Shown here: piece by piece, positions 11,429 to 56,616 of the stretch
Numbering within the stretch: the stretch's first letter is position 1
Layout: every line of letters starts with the position of its first letter
Virus record (IMG/VR): IMGVR_UViG_2706796498_000001
Coordinates: 1 to 64,000 of that record
Length of the DNA stretch: 64,000 nt
Direction: 5' to 3' (one strand)
Source: a virus
Taxonomy: Duplodnaviria > Caudoviricetes
Made by a program: the position numbers and the translations under genes
Notes under the pieces: generated by a model
Told to the model about the DNA's origin: nothing
The model's input: only the letters and a program-made list of their open reading frames with translations
Databases searched by the model: none

Positions 11429-12406
11429 ATGATTAATGTGCAACAACTTTACAAGATAAGAAGCACTCACGAAATAGAGAATATAAAAGGTGGTGATTAC
11501 GACTGGTTAGAAATTACTAAGCCTGATGATAGCGATCTAAGCCTTGTACAAAAGCGAACTGGACTAGAGATTAGTACCTCAAAGCTCATTCTATCTAGCC
11601 ATGAAAGTAGCCATATCGAAGGGCTAACGGAACCAGACAAACCACTTATGATTGTACTCCAGTACCCCAAAATGGTCGAATCAAACCTAGGGGATTTCAA
11701 AGAGTACGCCACTAGCCCGATTATCCTGATTCTAAGTAATGATGGGGATAACAATGACCTGATTACAATCAGTAATCATGAGCCATCTTTTATAGCCAAG
11801 ATACAAGAAGATAGTAAAAGCTTAAAGGTTCCAATAACCAATAAGAAAGATATAATGCTTCTGGTTATCTATTATATGTCACAAGAATACAGAAGTATTC
11901 TAAGATCATTAAATAAGGACGCTAACAGCTTGGAGCAGTCACTTAAAACGGCGACAAACAATATTATATTTTATCATGTAATGTCAATTCAAAAGACGGT
12001 TTCTTCATTTCTGGATTCACTTGCTAATAACCAAAATATCTGTGAGAAAATAGAGAATGACGCTAATTACTTTGCATCTGAAAAGTACACAGAATTAGCT
12101 AGGTCTGCTAGTCTTGCCCTAGAAGAAACATCAGAAGCGGCTCGACACTTGGACTACATTTTAGATAAGTATACAAGTCTAGTATCGTCAATCGTTGGTA
12201 ATAACCAACTGGTTACTATTAACAAATTCACGGAGTGGGGTATCGTTCTTTCCTTTTTGAGTGCCTCTTTTGGCGCCCTTGGTATGAATTACTATCTTCC
12301 TGGAGAAAGCAGTCATGTTACTACCATTCTAGTTTTTGCTACAATCTTTGCTTCTTCAATTTGGCTAAGTAAGTATATTAGAAAGTTACTAAAGGGTAAA
12401 AAATAA
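11429..12406 (+). CDS. corA: CorA-family Mg2+/divalent cation transporter
   Basis: 325 aa; soluble N-domain, long helix, two C-terminal TMs flanking the GMN signature (GALGMNY). Confidence 0.85.
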   Translation: MINVQQLYKIRSTHEIENIKGGDYDWLEITKPDDSDLSLVQKRTGLEISTSKLILSSHESSHIEGLTEPDKPLMIVLQYPKMVESNLGDFKEYATSPIILILSNDGDNNDLITISNHEPSFIAKIQEDSKSLKVPITNKKDIMLLVIYYMSQEYRSILRSLNKDANSLEQSLKTATNNIIFYHVMSIQKTVSSFLDSLANNQNICEKIENDANYFASEKYTELARSASLALEETSEAARHLDYILDKYTSLVSSIVGNNQLVTINKFTEWGIVLSFLSASFGALGMNYYLPGESSHVTTILVFATIFASSIWLSKYIRKLLKGKK

Positions 12407-24714: not shown

Positions 24715-24753
24715 TAAAAGCTCACCACCCATATTGGGTAGTGAGCTTCTTTT
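24715..24753. terminator. intrinsic terminator (bidirectional)
   Basis: AAGCTCAC.ACCC/GGGT.GTGAGCTT stem flanked by A- and T-tracts. Confidence 0.8.
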
Positions 24754-25285
24754 ATAAACTTGCGTATTGGTTTACGTGGAATATCAGCAAACAGACTTTA
24801 TTAGGTGACAGCACCTATCAGGCTTACTATTTGTTCGTCAACAAACAGCTCTGATAGCAAATGGCCAAGGCTGGGCTGGGATCGGTACCCACCAACTTTC
24901 ACTAAGCGTAAGCATAGATTGTAATATACATAACTTGTAAATTTAAATACCGTTAGCTACTCATACACCACTGGACTGTTATACACGTGTTACCACGCTT
25001 CATCGGTAACTACCTTAATGAGACCTCCCGCTTTGGGTCATTCGCTTGTTCAAGGCGATTTAACTACGGGTATAGTATTGTGGTTAGCCAGTCCGTGGCT
25101 ACCCTAAATCCTCAAGCTAATTTCCATGATTACCTCCACCCTAGATTTTTTTCTCTAGTTGGTAACACTATTAACTGTTACTAATTGAAATGGCTAAGCT
25201 ATCGTTTAACCACGTCTTAGGTGCTTTATAGGTAATCATGAGGGGCGGGTTTGCAATACCCTTATCCACCCACTTCAAGTTTACA
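24754..25285 (-). ncRNA. large structured ncRNA (~530 nt), ROOL-like candidate
   Basis: no credible ORF; TTGACG-17-TGnTAATAT promoter at 25320-25292; terminator directly after; ends pair (24755-62/25276-83); perfect 11-bp helix 25125-35/25230-40; many hairpins. Confidence 0.65.
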
Positions 25286-25309
25286 TTTATTATATTAACA
25301 TACTAGAGT

Positions 25310-26232: not shown

Positions 26233-26775
26233 TTATTTATATCTGATAAGGGTTGCCCCTTCTTCAATATTAGCCCCTCGATTTAATTGAGTAGCAGTAA
26301 TGACTAGCGTATCTGTTTGTTGGGCTAACTTTACTAGATTCCGAAAAAGTGATTCTCCTGCCTTGGCTTCGTTATCTGAATACTCTTGACGCTTTAACAG
26401 GTCTACATAGTCTAAAACTACCATATCAATTTTAATATCGTTTAATCGTTCTACGGATAGAATCATCTGTTTTAAATCATCAACCTTTAAAGTTAAGGGA
26501 GTAGACTCTTTAAAATAAACATTCCCATAACCGCCAATATTAGCTAAGTTATGGTAATAAGATTGTAACTTGCTAATATATTCTGGGTTAAAATCTTCCA
26601 AAGTAACGTGTAAAATATTATTGCCATCTTGCATTACATAATTATAGATTAGGTTGGTAAGCAAAGTCGACTTACCGCCACCTGGCTTAAAACCAAACAA
26701 AGCTACCTTTCCCAATTCTAGATCATCAATAGTAGCCTTGATCTTGTCAAACTCTGTCATACCTTCTTGCTTCAC
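26233..26775 (-). CDS. truncated DnaB-like helicase ATPase fragment
   Basis: GGGKST Walker A, TLE, VVLDYVDLL, ATQLNR; ends before motif H4 and lacks the N-terminal domain. Confidence 0.7.
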   Translation of the reverse strand: MKQEGMTEFDKIKATIDDLELGKVALFGFKPGGGKSTLLTNLIYNYVMQDGNNILHVTLEDFNPEYISKLQSYYHNLANIGGYGNVYFKESTPLTLKVDDLKQMILSVERLNDIKIDMVVLDYVDLLKRQEYSDNEAKAGESLFRNLVKLAQQTDTLVITATQLNRGANIEEGATLIRYK

Positions 26776-30114: not shown

Positions 30115-30126
30115 CTTGTTATCTTC

Positions 30127-30264
30127 CTACTTTCTTTTCTTGCTTTTCTTATAGAATTGGTGCCTTAGTTTCATACAAAAGTTTAAGAACCAACGGGAAC
30201 TAATGATTGCGTCCATTACTAACCACAACAACATAATTATGAAAATAACTCTTACAGCTACCAT
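30127..30264 (-). CDS. small membrane peptide (45 aa, not in the track)
   Basis: MVAVRVIFIIMLLWLV..., AGGGGGTGG RBS, upstream TTGACA promoter. Confidence 0.6.
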   Translation of the reverse strand: MVAVRVIFIIMLLWLVMDAIISSRWFLNFCMKLRHQFYKKSKKRK

Positions 30265-30472
30265 GTTTTTACCACCCCCTTAAACTTAATAGTAACATGG
30301 TCAAGCATTTTGTCAATACATTTTTTTAAATTATAATAAATAAAAGCAGGATAGTTAATAACTATCCCACTTAAACAACCTGAACTAATAGCGACTGCAA
30401 AATTTTTACGGGCTAAAAATTATCAAATATCGGTCAGGTTTGCAACGGTTCAACAATATGTTGATGTTGCAA

Positions 30473-30561
30473 CGGAGAATGAGGGATTTGAACCCTCGCA
30501 CCGGTTTCCCGGCCTACACCCTTAGCAGGGGCGCCCCTTCAACCAACTTGGGTAATTCTCC
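30473..30561 (-). tRNA. tRNA-Ser(GCT)
   Basis: GGAGAAT/ATTCTCC acceptor, CCC-CT GCT AA-GGG anticodon arm, long variable arm, GGTTCAAATCC; no encoded CCA. Confidence 0.93.
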
Positions 30562-30636
30562 AAAATGTTGACCCCAAGATCTAGTGGGAATTGAAGTAAT
30601 TAAAAAAGAGAAAGTTTTAATTAAAAGGGTCAACAA

Positions 30637-30709
30637 TGCTAATTACAAGAATCGAACTTGTAACCTCCTGCTTACAAGGCAGGCGCTCTGCCGATTGAGC
30701 TAAATTAGC
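30637..30709 (-). tRNA. tRNA-Thr(TGT)
   Basis: GCTAATT/AATTAGC acceptor, CCTGC-CT TGT AA-GCAGG, GTTCGATT; no encoded CCA. Confidence 0.93.
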
Positions 30710-30760
30710 TTAATGCTAACGCTAAGACTTGTCGGAACTTGTTAGCAGTGTCATCTCATT

Positions 30761-30860
30761 ACCAGCGTCCACTCTTGTCAGGGGGTACGCCTTAGCTGGT
30801 GTTGGAGGACAGTTTAGAGAGATTTTATCACCCGTACCCGAGGGCTCTCCCGCCTGATGG
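30761..30860 (-). ncRNA. GC-rich, multiply pseudoknotted RNA at the 5' end of the tRNA operon
   Basis: five crossing complementary pairs within 100 nt, directly after TTGACA-17-TAATAT (30894-30866). Confidence 0.5.
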
Positions 30861-30898
30861 TTTATATATTACCAAATGTGAACTACAATGTCAACACT

Positions 30899-31438: not shown

Positions 31439-31768
31439 TTATAGCCCTTGTCGAATGATTCCTTGTTCTACTACGGCGTGTTCAATAGTCTCATCATTAA
31501 TTTCGCTGATATTAAGAGATTTAATTACTTGCAAAATAATCTCTGTAAATCGTTCATGCGCACATTCAATGCTATTTGATTGTGTCTGTAAATATACCCC
31601 GTGAACATCTAAGCCAATGTGAACTAAGCCAAAGTGGTCGTAGTTTTCAACAGCCATATGTTCTGGGGAGTTAGTGTCCCGTAATACGTTGACAAAGGCA
31701 CTGGTGGTTCTTTCGCTTAAAACTGGGAAATTAGTTCCTAAATTCATTCGGTACCAGTGCATGATCAT
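31439..31768 (-). CDS. hypothetical protein
   Basis: 109 aa, AAGGAG RBS, upstream TTGACG promoter. Confidence 0.7.
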   Translation of the reverse strand: MIMHWYRMNLGTNFPVLSERTTSAFVNVLRDTNSPEHMAVENYDHFGLVHIGLDVHGVYLQTQSNSIECAHERFTEIILQVIKSLNISEINDETIEHAVVEQGIIRQGL

Positions 31769-31899
31769 TGCTCCTTTTCTATTTCATGGTTCCAGTTTAG
31801 CATTGGGATTTATCCACGTCAAGCTAATTCCAAAATTTTTTAAATAAATTTGGGCAAAGCCCTTGCCCTTCTAGTTGTTTGTGGTATACTATAATTAAA

Positions 31900-32655
31900 T
31901 TAAAACCAAGAGATTGGTGAGTATGAGTAGAACGTTCAATACCCGTTGAAATAGCTACGAGTACCCTACTAGGATAAGGGCAAAACCGTGTGTCCTAGTA
32001 TCTTACAGTTAAATATCAATTCACCGTTTGAGTTAAGCCTACTTGATTAGGCAATGGGATAACGAGGTGAACGCCCCCCACAAGGCAAGATCTCATGAGG
32101 CGCGTTACAATTACAGGTTTGGGAACTATAAATCAAGCAAGTTCCAGGTTCTATATCCAAGACTGGACTATCACAACTAATTAGCATATGGCTTACTAAT
32201 TGGTTGCCAGAGAGGAATAAGGGTCTTAAAACCGATTGAGATGGTGTCATGAGCCTAACTATAAAATTCATGCGAAGCTACAAATTAGCCTGATTCATGG
32301 GGGAACCAATTCAAACCTAGGGCCGTAGCTTTAGTATTAGTGAGTGCTACTATAAGGCACGGCTGGTAGGGAAGTTCCCTAATGGCCTTGTAATTGGAGA
32401 TGGTTAGTCTTGATATGCTAATCATCAAGTTACAAGTAACCAAGGGGAGGAGCTGACAGACCAACGCTTGTTGGAATTAGTTAAGCGCAGAAGTAATCAG
32501 TAATGGTGAAGATAATGCTTAGCTAGTTATGGTTAAAGATATTAGCAATAATATCAATAATCAGAAACCGGGACTTCCGGAGGTTTCTAAAAGCTGTTAG
32601 ATTGATCCAGTTGAAATACGTTTCATAGTAAAGGTTCCCCTGTGATGTACTATAC
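31900..32655 (+). ncRNA. large ornate ncRNA (~750 nt), family unassigned
   Basis: TTGCCC..TGGTATACT promoter at 31863-31890; no credible ORF; more than ten stems plus long-range loop-loop pairings. Confidence 0.6.
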
Positions 32656-32669
32656 CCGAACGACCGATA

Positions 32670-33240
32670 TACCAAACTCGGTGTTTCCCAATATTAATCA
32701 CTTACAACTCTTACCCCCTATTCCAACAGTTAAGTCTTATGTCTTAATCTGTCTTTTCTGTCCGGAGTAGGAGGTAAAAGTTTAACCTTCCCCTTCACTC
32801 CCTCAACCCAAACTCGGTGTTACCGTGTTGTCAAGGTTAAACTTTAGATAACGGGTTACTTCTTGGTAAACTGTTATTGAGAAAGAGATAACTATTAAAG
32901 GGTTAACCCTTAAAATTTTATCTTCTTGGTTAACATTCTTGGTTTAACTCTTAGGTTAGATAGTTAAGATAGAATGTTAACTAACTTAGATAGATAACTC
33001 TTAGGTTAGGATTGAATAACTAGGACGGAGTTAGTTAATATACATATACCAGATAGAGATGAATATTCTTACAACAATGATATAACACCAGTATCTACTG
33101 TAAGAATTAGTCATAATGAATATAAATGAAAAACTGGATAAATATTCAGTAATTAAAGATAAAGATTAGAACAACTAACTAGGTTAAGATTGTTAAGGTA
33201 TATCTGGTCAGAACTTTATTTTTACCCTTGGTTAGAAAAA
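32670..33240. other. putative replication origin with iteron-like repeats
   Basis: non-coding and AT-rich; CCAAACTCGGTGTT twice; repeated (C/T)T(T/A)GGTTA and TAGATA units; lies at the main minus-to-plus gene strand switch. Confidence 0.45.
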
Positions 33241-33306
33241 TCTATTGACAATTAGGACGGAGTGATAGATAATAAAGACAATCAAATAGAAAGGAAGATT
33301 GATTAC

Positions 33307-33411
33307 ATGAAAGAAGAAGATAAGTTTAACTATGATTTAATTAACCTAACTACCAGTGTTATCGTTGGTAGTCTGGTTAGTTTACTATTAGTAGCACTGT
33401 TTTTAGGTTAA
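33307..33411 (+). CDS. small membrane peptide (34 aa, not in the track)
   Basis: TTGACA promoter at 33245; AAAGGAAG RBS; C-terminal TM. Confidence 0.6.
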   Translation: MKEEDKFNYDLINLTTSVIVGSLVSLLLVALFLG

Positions 33412-41269: not shown

Positions 41270-43111
41270 GTGTTATTATTGAATGGTACTCAACTGGTTA
41301 AAGCCACTCGAAAGATGTTTAAACTTTCCCCAGATGATCGAGTAACGATGGATCAATTAAATTATGTATTGATGATGAGTAAGCCTAGTAACTATATTGT
41401 TGCTAACCATACAATTCGGGGAAATCCAATTACCTTTAATATTCCCGACCATAATATTAATCGGGCTTTGGCTCACCGTCCTTGGCAAGTTGACATTTTG
41501 AATGATACCTACCTAGACTTGATTATTATTAAGTCTCGGCAGTTAGGGCTATCTGAATTAGGGATTGAACAATTAATTTGGTGGCTTGATACACATTCAT
41601 TTGATCGGGTCAATGCTTTGTATACTTTCCCAACTAATCGACAGTTGGAGGACTTTGTAGCCCAACGTTTACAACCTGAATTTAATCATGGTTATTATCG
41701 TTCATTGATTTATGATCCTAAATCGATGACTTTAAAGAAGATGAAGATCAGAGATTCAAATTTAGTTTTCCGCTCCAGTTCTAGTGGGGCTACTATGGAA
41801 GGTATGGACTTGGATTTCGTTTCGCTTGATGAGTACGACCGTCTAAATCCGTTAGCGGAACAATCAGCTTTGCAAGGTATGACTTCTTCAAAGTATAAAA
41901 TGTTGCGCCGATGGAGTACCCCGACCGTGCCTTCGTACGGCATACACAAACTATTTGAACAATCTGATCAACGGCGTTGGTACCATAAATGTTCTCATTG
42001 CGGTTATGAACAAGTGTTGGACTATGAAAAGAATATTCAACAAATTAACCCAGATGGGGTTGATGATATTGGTTTAACAGTACAACCCGGTACCTTCCAG
42101 TTTGTCTGTGCTAAGTGTGGGCGTCCTTTAGATCGTTGGTATAGTGGTTATTGGGTAACTGAACGACCATTAGCTGGACGGACACATGGGTATTCTATTT
42201 CTCAAATGGACGCCGTGTGGGTGAGTGCCGACCAACTCAAGCAAGATGAGTTACGGGCACCATCAAAACAGTTTTTCTATAACTATTCTTTAGGTATGCC
42301 TTATGAAGATAAGTCCGTGGCCTTTCACGATTATGATGTATACTCTAATGAAATTGACTATGAAAAGCCTGAACAGAGAACAGACGAATATCGTTTTGTA
42401 GCAACCGGGATTGATTGGGGAGAACATAATCATACTGTTGTGACTATTGGAATGACTACCACCGGTCAAATTAGGCTTATGGATATTACCTTTATTCCTC
42501 GGTCAACTGGTACTGAACATATTGAACAAGACCTAAACCAAGTGGTTAGAAAGATTAATCAGTACAACCCTGATATTATTTGTCCAGACTTAGGTTTTTC
42601 TGGGTCATATGACCAAAAGCTGTTAGCTTACTATGGCCCTGAAAGGGTATATTCTGTTAAGGTTAGATCAGCTAAAACCAATGGTGACTACAACTCACAT
42701 TTCAGTGACGCTGATAATACAGTTACAATTGATAAGTACACACAAAATATGATGATGATTGCTAACATTAAGCGTGGTGATATTAAGTTTTGGCGAGGTT
42801 CACGGGTGGATCCAATTATTCAAACTTTTATTAAGCACGTCCAAAATGTTGTCTTTAGAACCGATGAAAAGGAAGATCCGGCTACTCATACAATTGTTTA
42901 TGACAAGGTTATCTTACGTAAAGGTCCAGACCACTCGGAACAAACGCTCATTTATGCCTTTGTGGGCCTAGATAAGTTGATGAAAGAGTATGCGTTAGCA
43001 CATCGGAACGCTATTGAAATGCAGTTTTTATCACCGGAATTATTTAATGGAGAACAGACCGACTTACAGCGTGAGTATGGGGTGACAGATGTAAAGGAAT
43101 TTGGTGAGTGA
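41270..43111 (+). CDS. terL: terminase large subunit
   Basis: KSRQLGLSE Walker A, SLDEYD Walker B, WSTPT, GIDWG nuclease, KGPDH. Confidence 0.93.
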   Translation: MLLLNGTQLVKATRKMFKLSPDDRVTMDQLNYVLMMSKPSNYIVANHTIRGNPITFNIPDHNINRALAHRPWQVDILNDTYLDLIIIKSRQLGLSELGIEQLIWWLDTHSFDRVNALYTFPTNRQLEDFVAQRLQPEFNHGYYRSLIYDPKSMTLKKMKIRDSNLVFRSSSSGATMEGMDLDFVSLDEYDRLNPLAEQSALQGMTSSKYKMLRRWSTPTVPSYGIHKLFEQSDQRRWYHKCSHCGYEQVLDYEKNIQQINPDGVDDIGLTVQPGTFQFVCAKCGRPLDRWYSGYWVTERPLAGRTHGYSISQMDAVWVSADQLKQDELRAPSKQFFYNYSLGMPYEDKSVAFHDYDVYSNEIDYEKPEQRTDEYRFVATGIDWGEHNHTVVTIGMTTTGQIRLMDITFIPRSTGTEHIEQDLNQVVRKINQYNPDIICPDLGFSGSYDQKLLAYYGPERVYSVKVRSAKTNGDYNSHFSDADNTVTIDKYTQNMMMIANIKRGDIKFWRGSRVDPIIQTFIKHVQNVVFRTDEKEDPATHTIVYDKVILRKGPDHSEQTLIYAFVGLDKLMKEYALAHRNAIEMQFLSPELFNGEQTDLQREYGVTDVKEFGE

Positions 43112-44658
43112 TAATCATGGGATTATTTGATATGTTTAGAGAACAAAAGAATTACTTTAACCCGGAGGAACTAACTAAGTCCTATCAGAATGACTTAGCT
43201 AAGAAGTTTACTCCGGGGAAAGCTGACCAACGACTAGATGATTTATCAATTACAATTGGTAATGATCGAGAAAACCAAAGGAGTGGTCAGCGTACACAGA
43301 TTGACCAAGACTATTTCTTGCGTAAGAAGGCACAACTGGCCCAGTATGCAGAAGATATTCTGGTTCAATCAATTATCCGTACTCGAACTAACCAAGTTGT
43401 TCGTTATGCTACTCCCGCACATTTAAGTCCGACTGGTGATGGGTTTAGAGTGATTAAGAAGGGTAAAACATATTCTTCTATGACAAAAGAAGAACAGAAA
43501 CGTTCTAAGGAACTTGAACAGTTTATCTATTATACAGGTAAAGATCAATTTGATTGGCGTGACAATTTTAGTGAGTTTCTTGCTAAGGTTATCTATGACT
43601 ACTACGTCTTTGATCAGGTTAATATTGAGCGTATCTTTGAATCTAAGTCCAGTAATCAACTGAACCACTTTAACCATGTTAGTGCTGGTAATATTCTAAT
43701 TGAGCGGTTCCCTAAATCTGTTGACCGCCCAAAGACGTATGTCCAGTATGTTGACCATAAAAAGCAAAGCACGTATACTAGCAAGGATTTAGTCTTTAAG
43801 ACTTTCTGGTCTCAACCAAACGCTCGTTCTGGTGGTTATGGTAAAAGCCCGGTGGAAGCAACCATTCCCCAATTGAATTACCGAACCAACGCTGAACAGT
43901 TTAATGCCCGTTTCTTCTCCCAAGGTGGTTTAACTCGGGGTATGCTGTTGATTGACCCCGGTGATGGAACAACGGGAAGTCGGGCAAGTTTAGACGCCTT
44001 ACGGCGTAATTTAACCCCGGCCCAGTCGGTTAATGGTAGTTGGAAGATCCCTATCATGTTTGGTCATGACGCCAAGTATGTTAATATGCAACAGAATTCT
44101 AAGGATATGGAGTTTACCCAATTCCTAGGGTATTTAACAAATGAGATCTGTGCTGTTTTTAATATCCAACCCGAAGAAATTAATGTTAATAACCGTGGTG
44201 GGGTAAATGGTAGTGGTAAAGGATCTTCTGTTTTAAATGAAGGTAAGACAGCTCAAGCTAAGTTAGCCGCTTCAAAGGAATCTGGTTTAATTCCCTTGAT
44301 CAAGAATATCGAACGGTTAATGACTGACAGTATTCTTGCTTATGTTGATAATGAATATCAATTTATTTTCACACCGAGTGACGAAGAAAAGGCTGAAAAA
44401 GAAGTGTCTTTAATTCAGGCTAAGGAAAATGTTGGCTTAACGATTAATGAAGGTCGGGCCATGATGGGATTGAAACCAGTAGAGAATGGTGATGTTCCAG
44501 GTAGTCCAGCTTATATTCAGTACCTTAATACCATTGCTAAGAATGATCCAGATTCCAATAAGGAATTACAGCAAAAGGATAAGAGTAACCCTGATAAGGG
44601 AGTATCTGGTGCTGAAATGGCCGAAGAAAAACAAAAGCAAGAAGCCAAAGAAAAATAA
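43108..44658 (+). CDS. portal protein
   Basis: IIRTRTNQV, YG.SPVE, RFFSQGG.TRGML, KDMEF..FL, INEGRA. Confidence 0.92.
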   Translation: MIIMGLFDMFREQKNYFNPEELTKSYQNDLAKKFTPGKADQRLDDLSITIGNDRENQRSGQRTQIDQDYFLRKKAQLAQYAEDILVQSIIRTRTNQVVRYATPAHLSPTGDGFRVIKKGKTYSSMTKEEQKRSKELEQFIYYTGKDQFDWRDNFSEFLAKVIYDYYVFDQVNIERIFESKSSNQLNHFNHVSAGNILIERFPKSVDRPKTYVQYVDHKKQSTYTSKDLVFKTFWSQPNARSGGYGKSPVEATIPQLNYRTNAEQFNARFFSQGGLTRGMLLIDPGDGTTGSRASLDALRRNLTPAQSVNGSWKIPIMFGHDAKYVNMQQNSKDMEFTQFLGYLTNEICAVFNIQPEEINVNNRGGVNGSGKGSSVLNEGKTAQAKLAASKESGLIPLIKNIERLMTDSILAYVDNEYQFIFTPSDEEKAEKEVSLIQAKENVGLTINEGRAMMGLKPVENGDVPGSPAYIQYLNTIAKNDPDSNKELQQKDKSNPDKGVSGAEMAEEKQKQEAKEK

Positions 44659-44702
44659 TCGATAAAGTGTTGACAATTTGATAGAGTGTGTTAATATATA
44701 GT

Positions 44703-44801
44703 CAAGGCTTTAGTCAAGCCTAGTGATAAAACTTCTTTCTTTTCTTTGATTTGTCTTTCTACAATGCAAAGAGGCCATGAATTAACGTTCATGGTCTTTT
44801 T
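44703..44801 (+). ncRNA. candidate ~100-nt antisense small RNA
   Basis: TTGACA (44670-75), TGnTAATAT (44692-97); 5' hairpin, pyrimidine tract, terminator 44772-44801; no ORF. Confidence 0.6.
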
Positions 44802-44908
44802 GTTTTTGTTATAATTTCTTATATTAATTCTAGAACAAAGTTTTGTTATATTATACCTAGAATTAATAAATAGATATTCATCTAGATGAAAGGAAGTTAT
44901 TAGAACAT

Positions 44909-46399
44909 ATGCCTAAGCTAGAAACAAAAAGTCACGCGGATACTGTATTTAAGTCCACGAATCGTTCCGAAGAAATCGCTAAGAACGATGGTATGGTTTC
45001 AGAAATTAGTAAGGCTTTGGAGGCCGGTTATGGTATTACCCCTGACACGCAAGTTGATGGAGCGGCTTACCGTCTGGAAAGTCTTGACCCAACTCTGAAC
45101 ATTACTACGTTTGGTGAAAATGACTTTACCATTTACAAGGACTTGGAACGGGTTCCTGTTAATCAAACCGTTCAAAAGTACACTGTTTACTACAACCACG
45201 GTCGGACGGGACACCAACTGTTCCAACCGGAAATTGCTAAGTTAAGTGTTAACACGCCTAACGCACGTCAAAAGACCGTTAACGTTAAGTTCGTAGTTGA
45301 CACCAAGGGTGCTTCCTTTGCTATGCAATGGGCTAACACGACTGTTGACACCCAAACCCTGCTGGAAATTAGTGGGGTAAACACGATTGCTAAGGCAATT
45401 GAATACGCTACCTTCTATGGAGATTCTGACCTTGCTACCCAAGATGGCGAAGGTTACGAATTTGACGGTATCTCCAAGCTGATGGATCAAGATAACGTTG
45501 TTGACCTTCATGGTGGTGCTTTAACTCCAGGTAAGCTGAATGAAGCCGCTACGATTATTGGTAAGCGTGGTTACGGGAAGGCAACTGACGCTTATATGCC
45601 AGTTGGTGTTAAGGCTGACTTCATTAACCAACACCTTGGTTCCCAACGGATTCTTCAACCGAACCCGGCTGACCACGGAATGCAAGTAGGGTTTGATATT
45701 ACCCGGTTCATCTCCGCTAATGGGGACATTAACCTGCATGGTTCTACTATCATGGATCTTGACTTGGTACTTGATACTGAATCCACTCCAGATGTTAATG
45801 CTGGGGCCGCTCCTACGGTTCAAGCTAAGCAAGTCGCTGGTCAAGGTGGTGCCTTCTTAACTGATGATAAGAAGGACGCAAACGGTCGGACAATCCTTAG
45901 CAAGGAAGTAGGGACTGAACTTCAATATCGGGTAGTTGCTGTTGGTGCCCACGACAGCCTTCCATCTGACATTGCTACGGCTACTCCGACTGCCGCAACT
46001 GATGGGGTAACTCTTACAATTACTCTTTCCCCATTGGTAACTGACCTTCCGCACTATGTAGCCATCTATCGTAAGTCTGATGTGCCGGGTGATGAAGATT
46101 TCCGTCTGATTGACCGGGTACCGATGTCCAAGTTCCAAAACGGGACTTTGACTTACACCGATGTCAATGACACTATTCCGGGTACGGCTGACGTATTCAT
46201 TCTTGATCGGCGTCCAGAAAACATTCGTTACCTTGAGTTTGCACCAATTATGAAGTTCCCATTGGCTGTAACGACCACTGCTACGAACTTCGCACTCCTC
46301 TGGTACGGGGCACTACAGCTAATTTACCCGAAGCGTTGTGTAAAGCTTCACAATGTATTATATGCTAGTGACGCTGAATCCTTGTTTGACTTAGCATAG
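44909..46399 (+). CDS. major capsid protein
   Basis: SKALEAGYGITPDTQVDGAAYRLESLD, IAKAIEYATFYGD, EFDG..KL, DAYMPVGVKADF: A511/K-type capsid. Confidence 0.95.
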   Translation: MPKLETKSHADTVFKSTNRSEEIAKNDGMVSEISKALEAGYGITPDTQVDGAAYRLESLDPTLNITTFGENDFTIYKDLERVPVNQTVQKYTVYYNHGRTGHQLFQPEIAKLSVNTPNARQKTVNVKFVVDTKGASFAMQWANTTVDTQTLLEISGVNTIAKAIEYATFYGDSDLATQDGEGYEFDGISKLMDQDNVVDLHGGALTPGKLNEAATIIGKRGYGKATDAYMPVGVKADFINQHLGSQRILQPNPADHGMQVGFDITRFISANGDINLHGSTIMDLDLVLDTESTPDVNAGAAPTVQAKQVAGQGGAFLTDDKKDANGRTILSKEVGTELQYRVVAVGAHDSLPSDIATATPTAATDGVTLTITLSPLVTDLPHYVAIYRKSDVPGDEDFRLIDRVPMSKFQNGTLTYTDVNDTIPGTADVFILDRRPENIRYLEFAPIMKFPLAVTTTATNFALLWYGALQLIYPKRCVKLHNVLYASDAESLFDLA

Positions 46400-53022: not shown

Positions 53023-56000
53023 ATGACTGAATATGATTTAACATTAAAGCTGGCAAGTGGGACTGCTGTTCCTTTACAAAAACGAGTTAAACAGCTTGAG
53101 AAAGAAATTGACCAGGTTTATAAATCCGGGATTAACAACAATAATACAATCTCTAATAAGCGGTCTACTAATTTACAACGTGATCTAGTATACGCACTTA
53201 ACCAACTCAAGGAACAACAGGATAACCTTGAGGGTGAATTAAATAGTACCACCCTTTATAACCGACAGGCTTATCAACAATTGGTTGACGCCTTGGATAA
53301 AGCTACCCAAGGAATTGACCAGATTAATTCCTTAGCCAACAGTGATAAATATCAAGATATTCAGTCATTTAATCTATCCTCATCAAAGGTATATCAGAGT
53401 TCAGAGTATGCTGATCAACAACAAGCCAACGATTTTGTTAATTCTGAATTAGGTAAAGAAGTTAAGAATATCGTTTTACGATCAACAACTCAATCTAATC
53501 GTTGGAATCAGAGTGTCGATTCTGGGGTTGTTACTTACCAAAAGTATCAGGAGTATGTATCAAATAATCAGTATACCCGAGAAAAAATAACTGATTTAGA
53601 TAGCCAAGTAACTGATCAACGGAATAACATTCAATCCCAAATTGACGTATTAAGTTCTCAACAAGATCAAATTAAGGGCCAAGATAGTTTAAGTGTCGAT
53701 GATGTAAACACCCTAGCGGGAATTAGGGAGCAATTAAATAACTTATCAAAGAGTGGTAAGTATCTAGATGAGTTGTCTAATCGGCTAACTCAAGCTCAAG
53801 AAGCGGTTACTAGGACTGGTGAAGCAATTCACGCTAAGACCAGTATTGATAATGTTACTAATAATACTGATACCAAAGATACCATTAAGGTATTACCTAG
53901 CAATGATTCTATTGCTGGGTATATCCACAATCACCGTTCTTTCTTAATTCGTCAAGCAGTTAGAACCGCTTTAATTGCTGGCCCTTATTATGTATCACAA
54001 GGTAGCAATGCTCGTCTTACTACCTTTAATAATATCGCAGGGGCTATGTATGCACGAGGCGGTGGTGATAATAGTATTGTTAATACCCTAGGTAACAATA
54101 AGTTAGGAATGGACTTATCAGAAAGTTCAGCTTATCTAGGGGCGTATACTCGCAATACTGGTAAGGGTAATCTATCAAACAAGTCTATTTCTAAACTTAC
54201 CAACACTTGGGGAGCTTTAGCACTTACCAACGGAGCAAGTAGTAATACAGTCGCTAATTTGTTAGGTGTGGCCGCGCTTACTAATACGCAAGGATTGTCA
54301 GCAAGTGATAGTGAGCGTTTAGCAGACGCAATTCAGAATAGTCTAACCAATTCTCATACTAGTGCGAAGGCTGATTCCCAATTAAAAGCCTTATCTAGTA
54401 TGTATCAGACTGCGGCAACTAGTGGTAAGTTGACCACCAAAGATCAGATTAATATTGCTGGTTTCCAGTCAATGATGAGTAAGACTGGTTCTTCTTGGCA
54501 AGGTAGCGCAGGTGCCCAAGCCTATTCTGGTTTAGCTAATGTATCTAATAATGCTAATAGCCAAAACCAACAGTTATCATTATGGTTAGATAACAAGAAC
54601 TTTACTGGGTATAATCAATCCGGTAATATGGTAGCCTTAAAGACTGCACAACGGGCTAAGTCAGACCCTTATTTATACAAGACACCTATTGGTAACTTAT
54701 ATCGGACTGCTAGACAGCAAACCAGTAGCAAGTCCGGGGCAATTGCAGTTACTACTCAAAACTTGGTAACTTTGTCTGGAAACTCACTATCATATGAACA
54801 GGCTAATTCATTAGTCAAGTTGTATGCTGATGGCAAGTTTACCCGTGCTAACGTTAAGAAACAGACTAAAGGTAAAGGGGTAAATAGTAAGAAGTATCAT
54901 AAGACTGGTACTAGCTCCATTCGCTCCCAACAGCAAGCAATTCAATCATCACAAATTAAAGCGTCCCAATCAATAGATGGTTTAAGACGTAATCTAAGCT
55001 CCTTTACCCATTCTCACCCAATGATAAGTGCAATTGGTTTTGTTGGCGGAAGTGCCTTGATGGGGGCTAGTGATGGTATTATCAATGCCGCTATTGAGGG
55101 TGGTTCACTAGCTACAATGGGGGCTGGTGTAAAGAGTGTTGCTAAATCTGGGCTTTCGGTTTTGTCCAAAATGCCTAAGACAGGTAAAGTTGGTACCATT
55201 GTTGGTATAGGTGTTGGGATTGGAACTGGTTTGTTATTAATGTCAGGCAATGCTAAGGCAAGTACCAAAGACAAGGATAACAAAGCCAAGATGACCAGTA
55301 CGCAATCACGTACACAATCACGTACACAAAATAGTCAAGCATATACACCACGTAAAAAGTCAGCTAAGCATAAAAGTATTCTTACTAGTATTAAGGACGG
55401 GGTTTTACATTTTCTGTCCGAGCTAGGCGTATATCGTGTTAAACACAAAGATGTTAATGCTTCTCAAAAGCAATTAATTAAGCACTTGAGAATGTGGTTC
55501 AACGAGATATATAAGAAAGTTAAGAATGCGGCCAAGAATGGTTCAAGTGATTCTAAGACTGCTGGTGACGTTTCCAATGATGGGGCAACTAAGTCAAAGG
55601 AATACTGGTTAAAGAAGGCCAAGGAAGTTGCTAAGGCAATGGGGGTTGACATTAGTGATTCACAGCTAGAAAACTTAATGAAGTTAATTGCGGGCGAATC
55701 CAACTATGATCAAACCATTACTCAACAAATTCAAGATGTTAATTCAGCTAATGGTGACCCAGCCAAAGGGTTATTACAGATGATTCAAGGAACCTTTAAC
55801 AAGTATAAAGTTAAAGGTCATGATAATATCCTTTCCGGGGTTGATCAACTTTATGCTTTCTTTAACATTGCTAACTGGGCCAGTTATCTCTATGGTCACG
55901 CTGGTTGGTCACCTTCTGGCCCTACCCGAGGTTATGCTAATGGGGGCTTAGTAACTCATGCTACCGGGGGTAGTATGACAGGCCCTATTCAAGGTATGCG

Positions 56001-56259
56001 TACTAGCCGAGAAAGTGCCCCAGTATCTATGCTTGACTTGAGGGCTTTGCAGACTCGTTACACAACCCTTAACCAAGCTAATAGCGTTGTTCATAGGGTA
56101 AAGAGAAATGCTCCGAAAATAAAAGTTAAAATAGATACGTCACAAGCCGTTCAAAGCCGGAATAAAAATGATATTATAGATAGTATCATTAACGATACAT
56201 TTAATGCGTGGGTTAATAATAGCCAACAACAGATAATGTTAGACTACTACTCACATTAA
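53023..56259 (+). CDS. tape measure protein with C-terminal lytic transglycosylase (SLT) domain
   Basis: follows the chaperone; LIAGESN..DVNS..GDPAKGLLQMIQGTF; ATG at 53023 after GGTGGTGA. Confidence 0.82.
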   Translation: MTEYDLTLKLASGTAVPLQKRVKQLEKEIDQVYKSGINNNNTISNKRSTNLQRDLVYALNQLKEQQDNLEGELNSTTLYNRQAYQQLVDALDKATQGIDQINSLANSDKYQDIQSFNLSSSKVYQSSEYADQQQANDFVNSELGKEVKNIVLRSTTQSNRWNQSVDSGVVTYQKYQEYVSNNQYTREKITDLDSQVTDQRNNIQSQIDVLSSQQDQIKGQDSLSVDDVNTLAGIREQLNNLSKSGKYLDELSNRLTQAQEAVTRTGEAIHAKTSIDNVTNNTDTKDTIKVLPSNDSIAGYIHNHRSFLIRQAVRTALIAGPYYVSQGSNARLTTFNNIAGAMYARGGGDNSIVNTLGNNKLGMDLSESSAYLGAYTRNTGKGNLSNKSISKLTNTWGALALTNGASSNTVANLLGVAALTNTQGLSASDSERLADAIQNSLTNSHTSAKADSQLKALSSMYQTAATSGKLTTKDQINIAGFQSMMSKTGSSWQGSAGAQAYSGLANVSNNANSQNQQLSLWLDNKNFTGYNQSGNMVALKTAQRAKSDPYLYKTPIGNLYRTARQQTSSKSGAIAVTTQNLVTLSGNSLSYEQANSLVKLYADGKFTRANVKKQTKGKGVNSKKYHKTGTSSIRSQQQAIQSSQIKASQSIDGLRRNLSSFTHSHPMISAIGFVGGSALMGASDGIINAAIEGGSLATMGAGVKSVAKSGLSVLSKMPKTGKVGTIVGIGVGIGTGLLLMSGNAKASTKDKDNKAKMTSTQSRTQSRTQNSQAYTPRKKSAKHKSILTSIKDGVLHFLSELGVYRVKHKDVNASQKQLIKHLRMWFNEIYKKVKNAAKNGSSDSKTAGDVSNDGATKSKEYWLKKAKEVAKAMGVDISDSQLENLMKLIAGESNYDQTITQQIQDVNSANGDPAKGLLQMIQGTFNKYKVKGHDNILSGVDQLYAFFNIANWASYLYGHAGWSPSGPTRGYANGGLVTHATGGSMTGPIQGMRTSRESAPVSMLDLRALQTRYTTLNQANSVVHRVKRNAPKIKVKIDTSQAVQSRNKNDIIDSIINDTFNAWVNNSQQQIMLDYYSH

Positions 56260-56271
56260 GGAGGAACTAGA

Positions 56272-56616
56272 ATGCACTTTGTAATCTATGAAAAGACAGA
56301 CTGTTCTAATTGTATGCGTACGATGGCCCTGTTGCGGGGCATGAAGTCCGCTGTTGCTACTAACTACTATGGTGATGAATCAAAGCCTAATCTAGCTGAT
56401 TTCACGACTGATGACCCAGACAAGGTTGCTTATCGGGAACACTTGGTAGATAAGTTAAAGACCCGTTATAATGCAATGTCATTCCCGGTAGTTAAGGTTG
56501 TGGACAAGGATAACAACCTTATTGATTATTGGGACGGCTTTAACCCCAAGAAGATTTTTGAGTATGGAAAAAAGACCGATCAAGAAGAACTACAAGTAGT
56601 CAATGAGGAACACTAG
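56272..56616 (+). CDS. NrdH/glutaredoxin-like redoxin
   Basis: IYEK.DCSNC, SFPVV, WDGF.P. Confidence 0.8.
   Translation: MHFVIYEKTDCSNCMRTMALLRGMKSAVATNYYGDESKPNLADFTTDDPDKVAYREHLVDKLKTRYNAMSFPVVKVVDKDNNLIDYWDGFNPKKIFEYGKKTDQEELQVVNEEH

Follow-up and report, generated by a model that had tools for sequence, protein, structure and literature searches.

The locus considered here raises the question of whether the gap between two oppositely directed gene arms of a phage genome encodes a giant RNA in its own right and, if it does, what that RNA might do for the phage. The window (the whole 64,000-nucleotide stretch that was analysed, IMG/VR record IMGVR_UViG_2706796498_000001) covers the opening 64 kb of a phage genome that is complete at 106,071 bp and has direct repeats at its termini, and the first-pass annotation of its sequence had placed a structured RNA at 31900-32655, in what is a 1.8-kb gap where the coding strand switches from the leftward to the rightward arm. 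A structured RNA gene is very probably real here, on the plus strand at 31903-32840, and the RNA represents a family not described before, although of a kind already known, the large ornate phage RNA, and so far seen only in the clade of the window phage. The RNA itself, its strand and its peripheral helices are borne out by comparison with related phages, and its transcription is hinted at by one public RNA dataset. To our knowledge, very few natural bacterial or phage RNAs exceed 700 nt, and the reading that we tentatively favour is that of a stand-alone, large non-coding RNA serving as a scaffold or decoy.

Seven distinct homologues were found in public assemblies of related phages (L006/7/8, L010, L013, L020, L162 and L228), in which 31903-32840 retains 89-97% identity, against 66-89% for the flanking genes. 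Identity jumps at 31903 and drops after ~32840, and the conserved element runs ~185 nt past the end first given for it (32655), to ~32840. By segment, identity is 92-98% over 31903-32390 (93-97% over 32101-32390), 80-96% over 32391-32600 and 90-98% over 32601-32840, and elsewhere it is 56-84% in the AT-rich tract that follows the element and 60-74% in the gap around the promoter. The whole stretch also folds better than shuffled sequences, with z scores of -5.2 on the plus strand and -3.7 on the minus strand. The gene and its parts are as follows.

31863 to 31890, plus strand: promoter of host-sigma type with TG before the -10 box (extended -10); the -35 and TG/-10 are kept in relatives.
31903 to 32660, plus strand: core of the candidate RNA gene, ~760 nt, marked by its fold (z -5.2) and its identity relative to the flanks, with no Rfam match.
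31903 to 32001, plus strand: 5' domain with a GNRA-capped hairpin, a three-tier hairpin (31921-64) and a hairpin at 31967-32000, supported by covariation.
32005 to 32390, plus strand: nearly invariant core, its fold partly resolved, with competing helices (P 0.3-0.6) in the consensus fold.
32042 to 32047, plus strand: invariant hairpin loop CUUGAU, with a 6-nt complement to the loop at 32132-37, a candidate loop-loop contact.
32295 to 32307, plus strand: 5' strand of a probable 13-bp long-range helix, invariant.
32384 to 32442, plus strand: long interrupted hairpin with two two-sided and several G-U-preserving changes.
32409 to 32416, plus strand: second invariant CUUGAU loop, with a 7-nt complement to unpaired 32013-19, a candidate contact.
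32452 to 32600, plus strand: variable multi-branch domain with a closing helix (32453-59/32594-600), four arms and two GNRA loops, supported by covariation.
32633 to 32645, plus strand: 3' strand of the probable 13-bp helix, which would close a ~350-nt domain, invariant.
32661 to 32840, plus strand: 3' extension, with direct repeats (32672-88 and 32808-24) around a hairpin (32706-81) and a C-rich tract, 90-96% identical.

The promoter that had been proposed ahead of the RNA is thus a promoter-like site conserved among relatives, from which transcription would start at ~31897, and the 3' extension may be either the tail of the RNA or the core of a DNA origin. C-rich runs that are invariant or nearly so lie at ~32073-78, 32636-40, 32716-20 and 32790-802.

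Compensatory change can be followed in the peripheral domains. Within 32452-32600, six pairs are changed on both sides, a result equalled by none of 500 shuffles, with slid controls giving 0-1, and within 31903-32002 the pair 31939:31946 is seen as A-U, C-G and G-C and the five two-sided cells of the 5' domain are matched by none of 500 shuffles; a small set of related sequences can beat shuffles, and the counts of pair types and the GNRA pattern agree with the result. One relative, L013, re-forms the arm 32475-87/32516-28 using different sequence. The first tetraloop appears as GAGA, GUGA or GCAA among relatives and GNRA loops are likewise retained at 32500 and 32545, such that two of the tetraloops vary within GNRA only and the third is invariant save for one GNRA variant; restriction to GNRA is a constraint imposed by tertiary packing in RNA. 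In every relative the covarying domains have greater stability on the plus strand, as does the hairpin at 32384-32442, by ~7-12 kcal/mol. Because the loops are GNRA-restricted and G-U-tolerant changes fall on one strand, the element is better read as RNA than as DNA. Among the stems proposed earlier, those now placed at 31967-76/31991-32000, 32174-84/32196-206, 32387-408/32417-36 and 32563-69/32582-88 are present and also conserved in relatives, and both 32387-408/32417-36 and 32563-69/32582-88 show two-sided changes.

The most striking proposal of the first-pass annotation was that 32295-307 and 32633-45, each in the loop of its own stem (32275-81/32325-31 and 32625-30/32648-53), form a 13-bp loop-loop kiss. 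The complement exists as claimed, with 11 Watson-Crick and 2 G-U pairs; its predicted energy of -21.8 kcal/mol is equalled by 1 of 150 shuffles, although 39% of the shuffles contain some 13-bp run. It is probably a real helix, because the pairing is unusually strong and never varies, both strands being invariant in all relatives, which leaves no covariation across the proposed kiss. The kiss itself fared less well, since the helix forms nested at a probability of ~1 and has no need of the closing stems. The nested fold with the 13-bp helix is the free-energy minimum (-128.0), and forcing both stems with the strands unpaired gives -106.8, to which adding the duplex yields a roughly equal value, before any pseudoknot penalty. 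The 3' closing hairpin alone is worth -1.8 kcal/mol and loses one pair in L013, and a change at 32275 in L228 is compatible with the proposed 5' stem and also with a competing local hairpin. Furthermore, 13 bp is more than a full turn of the helix, and two loops that are both closed could scarcely wind that far, so that the geometry is sterically doubtful at this length. The odds of a full loop-loop kiss are about one in four; a helix that is nested, or else a simple pseudoknot, is likelier. A second pseudoknot, 32311-18 with 32115-22, is broken at one end in three of the seven relatives, and again in L013. Better candidates for loop contacts are the two CUUGAU loops, although each complement is near chance level alone; the loops at 32042-47 and 32132-37 are invariant and predicted to be unpaired at 0.96-0.97, and the unpaired stretch 32013-19 is likewise invariant.

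Other motifs were seen in the same region. Four copies of TCATG lie in a 210-nt part of the invariant core (32092-32099, 32247-32252, 32268-32272 and 32295-32299), one of them as an 8-nt palindrome, and the copies are predicted to be paired. A tRNA-like cloverleaf at 32321-92, considered by eye, was dropped with no ARAGORN or Rfam support, as were look-alikes of group I core motifs, also considered by eye, which vary and have no Rfam support.

Parts of the stretch are present in 20 public runs, six of them RNA. In one gut metatranscriptome, X19, a single contig covers 31909-32959 plus 14 letters, and coverage is absent across the divergent promoters (31763-31908) and across 32974-33408; the limits of this contig fit transcription that begins near 31897 and stops within the AT-rich tract. 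Run X15, with flat, DNA-like depth across the promoter, was not used as evidence of expression. Three further features bear on how the transcript is to be read.

24752 to 25297, minus strand: ROOL RNA (RF03087, 129.4 bits), with an intrinsic terminator (hairpin plus T run) downstream.
31794 to 31822, minus strand: divergent promoter of the left arm; the left-arm contig of X19 stops at 31762.
32841 to 33240, no strand assigned: AT-rich, fast-evolving, TAAC/GTTA-rich tract, a likely origin unwinding or iteron region.

The first of these is the 530-nt RNA from which the first-pass annotation had distinguished its second giant RNA, and the distinction is supported, the two being unrelated by models and motif. 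At E<=10 the ROOL model (cut-off 99.1 bits) matches only 24752-25297, no Rfam family matches the candidate region, and the GOLLD model (RF02032, conserved 3' domain, cut-off 150 bits), although it may miss diverged members, matches neither the region nor the genome, so that the suggested membership of GOLLD finds no support from its covariance model. Group I and II introns and OLE, which had also been named for checking, and likewise RNase P, tmRNA, HEARO, raiA and ARRPOF, give no Rfam match at E<=10; the candidate is intergenic with its own promoter, unlike an intron inside a gene, and no tmRNA was detected. The ROOL 3' motif AGUAG...GUGAAAG is present in the ROOLs of the window and of phage 3-521 and in phage K lncRNA2 and is absent from the candidate, although the pattern also missed two other ROOL extracts. 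As a control, phage K lncRNA2, which carries this motif, received no ROOL match in the same Rfam search, and the Rfam negative is therefore not absolute. A 10-mer said to be shared with the 530-nt RNA is at chance expectation (P ~0.33) and altered in relatives. Covariance models of the two covarying domains match the clade's own copies only and none of four ROOLs, and the domains whose fold is resolved differ from ROOL. Distant relatives of the element were found neither by blastn against phages and plasmids nor by protein-anchored scans; DNA patterns run against viral, metagenome and genome collections gave L162 as their sole true match, the rest being chance by nhmmer; and profile and covariance searches of five Lactobacillus Herelleviridae and of the phage K loci found nothing, with the limit that search models built from sequences 89-97% alike make such blanks no proof of absence. 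LP65 gave one match (E 0.001), a chance one within a tail gene. The element was not found described in the literature that was searched.

What would a stand-alone RNA of this kind do? Host RNA polymerase would make a ~0.76-1.07 kb transcript early in infection. The folded transcript would have hairpins in its 5' domain, then the invariant core, then a multi-branch 3' domain that the 13-bp helix clamps; tertiary or inter-chain contacts may come from the GNRA loops and from the invariant loops that are complementary, and the RNA would act as a compact scaffold or decoy, as proposed for ROOL and GOLLD, at ordinary copy number. Every functional step in this scheme is a proposal. The scheme is favoured because an invariant core and an elaborate, compensated fold rich in GNRA loops are also features of ROOL and GOLLD, which build protein-free cages of unknown purpose, GOLLD self-assembling into a 10- to 14-mer. 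Two-sided changes exceed those of all 500 shuffles in both testable domains, and the size, phage host range and tRNA neighbourhood of the candidate resemble those of the two families (PMC5737381, PMC12286853). GOLLD (RF02032; PMC12286853, PMC5737381) is likewise ~700-830 nt, found in Lactobacillales phages near tRNA genes, with a many-branched fold, GNRA loops and long-range pairings. In contrast, the candidate has no match to the GOLLD model, is transcribed away from the tRNAs rather than with them, and gives no sign of very high abundance, with mRNA-like depth in two metatranscriptomes (contig depths) where ROOL stands out; very high expression during lysis is a mark of GOLLD. ROOL is a large ornate RNA of the same phage with a similar level of conservation (in L013 identity is 89% for the element and 84% for the portion of ROOL present); the candidate is longer, lacks the ROOL motif, model match and terminator, and is ~500-fold scarcer in X19.

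Phage K, a member of the Herelleviridae, also has two long non-coding RNAs, lncRNA1 and lncRNA2, of 528 and 543 nt, which make up 27% of all reads (PMC11598898, PMC9241854). The presence of two large RNAs in one Herelleviridae phage is therefore not without precedent, which weakens that part of the first-pass reading. The phage K RNAs resemble the present pair in lying near tRNAs with one adjoining a presumed origin, and differ in having no sequence or model similarity to the candidate and in that lncRNA2 is directed away from the origin. The lncRNA1 region of phage K (L022:1133-1269, minus strand) gives a DUF3800-I RNA match of 43.4 bits, just under the cut-off of 44.2.

Among five Lactobacillus Herelleviridae, ROOL is above the Rfam cut-off in three (3-521, LP65 and Lb338-1; L223, L224 and L222, respectively), and in Bacchae and LpeD none is above that cut-off. 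Unannotated, open reading frame-free, promoter-led gaps of 0.8-1.3 kb at a divergent strand switch are found in Bacchae (L188:3823-5180, minus strand), LpeD (44169-45143), LP65 (55515-56415, plus strand) and Lb338-1 (43015-43913, plus strand), mostly head-to-head with the replication module and with fold z scores of -2.7 to -4.8 on the better strand, and these have no detectable sequence or structural homology to the candidate. The orphan structured gap of Bacchae (43.8-45.2 kb) is free of repeats and distant from an iteron-like array at 136.5 kb, and such RNAs thus need not be parts of an origin. The Bacchae-type gap, which has no Rfam match, is 94-95% conserved in five relatives, its middle part being common with LpeD and its 3' part with LP65 and ATCC 8014-B2.

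Several observations weigh against the scaffold or decoy, beginning with abundance. ROOL, GOLLD and the phage K long non-coding RNAs are very abundant. In X19 the candidate has a depth of 221, about that of neighbouring mRNA (177 and 257) and ~500-fold below ROOL, which stands at ~100,000 against 37-820 for other genes of the window phage, and in X16 it has 26-65 against 156 for ROOL; these are contig depths from single studies whose runs do not give the stage of infection, and, as a hint only, they argue against ROOL-like abundance. No intrinsic terminator was found after the candidate, whereas ROOL has one, and conservation continues unbroken into the origin-like repeats. Finally, the core is too invariant for a covariation test, and only seven distinct close relatives were found.

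The strongest rival turns on whether the neighbouring DNA is a replication origin. The direct repeats after 32660 are two copies of 14-17 nt found nowhere else in the genome, and in L013 both copies are changed together. The tract beyond them is 72-75% AT, with TAAC/GTTA at 44-60 per kb in four genomes, against 15 genome-wide, despite identity of 56-84%. An origin at 32670-33240 is a fair inference from the repeats, the AT content, the position and the repeat arrays at corresponding strand switches in phages K, 3-521 and Bacchae; in phage K a pair of direct repeats at the equivalent strand switch forms the presumed origin (PMC11598898). Iteron-like arrays that are likely origins lie at a strand switch before the terminase gene in Bacchae (L192:16500-16930, 66-nt period) and in 3-521 (L194:8960-9760, 10-nt and 78-nt repeats).

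On this basis the RNA could be a pre-primer or activator of the origin, in the manner of ColE1 RNA II or T4 origin transcripts, its folded 5' part readying a terminator-less 3' tail that would cross the direct repeats, enter the AT-rich tract and, hybridised to DNA, open the origin or prime the phage's PolA-type polymerase. Consistent with this, a promoter-driven transcript is directed into the repeats and AT-rich tract with no terminator, the RNA contig ends inside the tract, the 14-nt repeat is unique to the site, and low abundance suits a role in cis. Moreover, 32442-50 can pair with the C-rich tract at 32787-95, a pairing kept through two G-U changes, and the skew at fourfold sites weakly fits a bidirectional origin, with only 5 counter-oriented genes. 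ColE1 RNA II is plasmid-borne, ~555 nt long and tied to a replication origin. A further precedent is ARRPOF, a structured motif of 255 nt needed for plasmid replication (PMC5737381), which dimerises via kissing loops (PMC12990946); both are structured nucleic acids tied to an origin, as the candidate may be, and differ from it in being plasmid-borne and shorter, with no Rfam match here. The strand switches of phage K (PMC11598898), 3-521 and Bacchae can be cited in favour, but the ROOL RNAs of phages K and 3-521 also lie near such tracts, so that adjacency says little, and the large RNA beside the presumed origin is directed away from it in both. The 3' part of the transcript is, moreover, largely pyrimidine-rich. 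Pyrimidine-rich RNA disfavours RNA-DNA hybrids. An ornate, GNRA-rich variable domain also exceeds the apparent needs of a primer, and the position of the origin is inferred rather than mapped. An origin pre-primer or activator is doubtful, and the fuller proposal, that a SPO1-like phage uses an ornate RNA of 0.75-1.05 kb as pre-primer or licensing factor for its replication origin, is unlikely.

A highly diverged GOLLD or ROOL missed by the Rfam models is improbable. The size falls in the GOLLD range (700-830 nt), the host order fits, tRNAs are near, and the miss of phage K lncRNA2 shows that such members can escape; nevertheless, there is neither a GOLLD nor a second ROOL match, the ROOL motif is absent, the two-domain models miss four ROOLs, and the candidate is not hyper-abundant. 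Quite improbable, too, is a DNA-level element (a folded single-stranded origin or an array of protein-binding sites), a long leader, or a minus-strand gene for a small protein at 32047-32271. The 3' hairpin at 32706-81 is equally stable on either strand, as a DNA element might be, but the GNRA-restricted loops and one-strand changes described above indicate RNA; a long leader is at odds with the promoter of the downstream rightward genes (33245-73) and with the break in RNA cover before those genes; and although gene callers mark a frame of 67-74 aa in three relatives, it is frameshifted in L162, has no Pfam match and shows amino-acid-changing differences equal to or above silent ones in most relatives. 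Least probable of all is a trans-acting regulator which, like staphylococcal RNAIII, would target host or phage mRNAs by pairing its invariant C-rich stretches with their ribosome-binding sites, since the near-invariant C-rich runs, early promoter and moderate abundance that suit it are offset by internal partners for most of those runs.

The genome in which the stand-alone RNA would act appears to be that of a SPO1-like phage of Limosilactobacillus fermentum, as its polymerase and terminase have 39-53% identity to those of Lactobacillus Herelleviridae and a neighbouring protein has relatives that are filed under that host. The leftward arm carries two unknown genes, tRNA-Thr and tRNA-Ser (1.2-1.4 kb from the candidate, on the opposite strand), the PolA-type polymerase, a DnaB-like fragment and ROOL, and the rightward arm carries HIRAN, LysM, endolysin and terminase genes. 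The DnaB-like helicase match (26233-26775, minus strand) spans just 180 aa of the ATPase part and may be a split or reduced gene. In the relative L020 an HNH endonuclease gene interrupts the polymerase gene (L020:3226-4336), probably within an intron, and the window is without the insertion. The tRNA cluster differs among relatives, with two in the window (30115-30898), four in L013 (5687-6883) and three in L162. A phage-borne gene for a CorA-like magnesium transporter (11429-12406, plus strand), also present in Lb338-1, is of possible interest beside magnesium-dependent large RNAs.

The narrow known distribution of the family limits its significance, as does a function that is a proposal only. 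A further giant RNA family beside ROOL in one genome would nonetheless allow direct comparison of an abundant with a scarce giant RNA, and because the phage appears to be cultured and lytic, with a culturable host, the RNA is open to probing, imaging and deletion. If it primes the origin, it would explain how replication starts in these phages; and if it is a pre-primer or licensing factor, this would give a giant phage RNA its first function and would suggest that RNAs of the origin or replication module, unrelated from clade to clade, occur across the Lactobacillus Herelleviridae.
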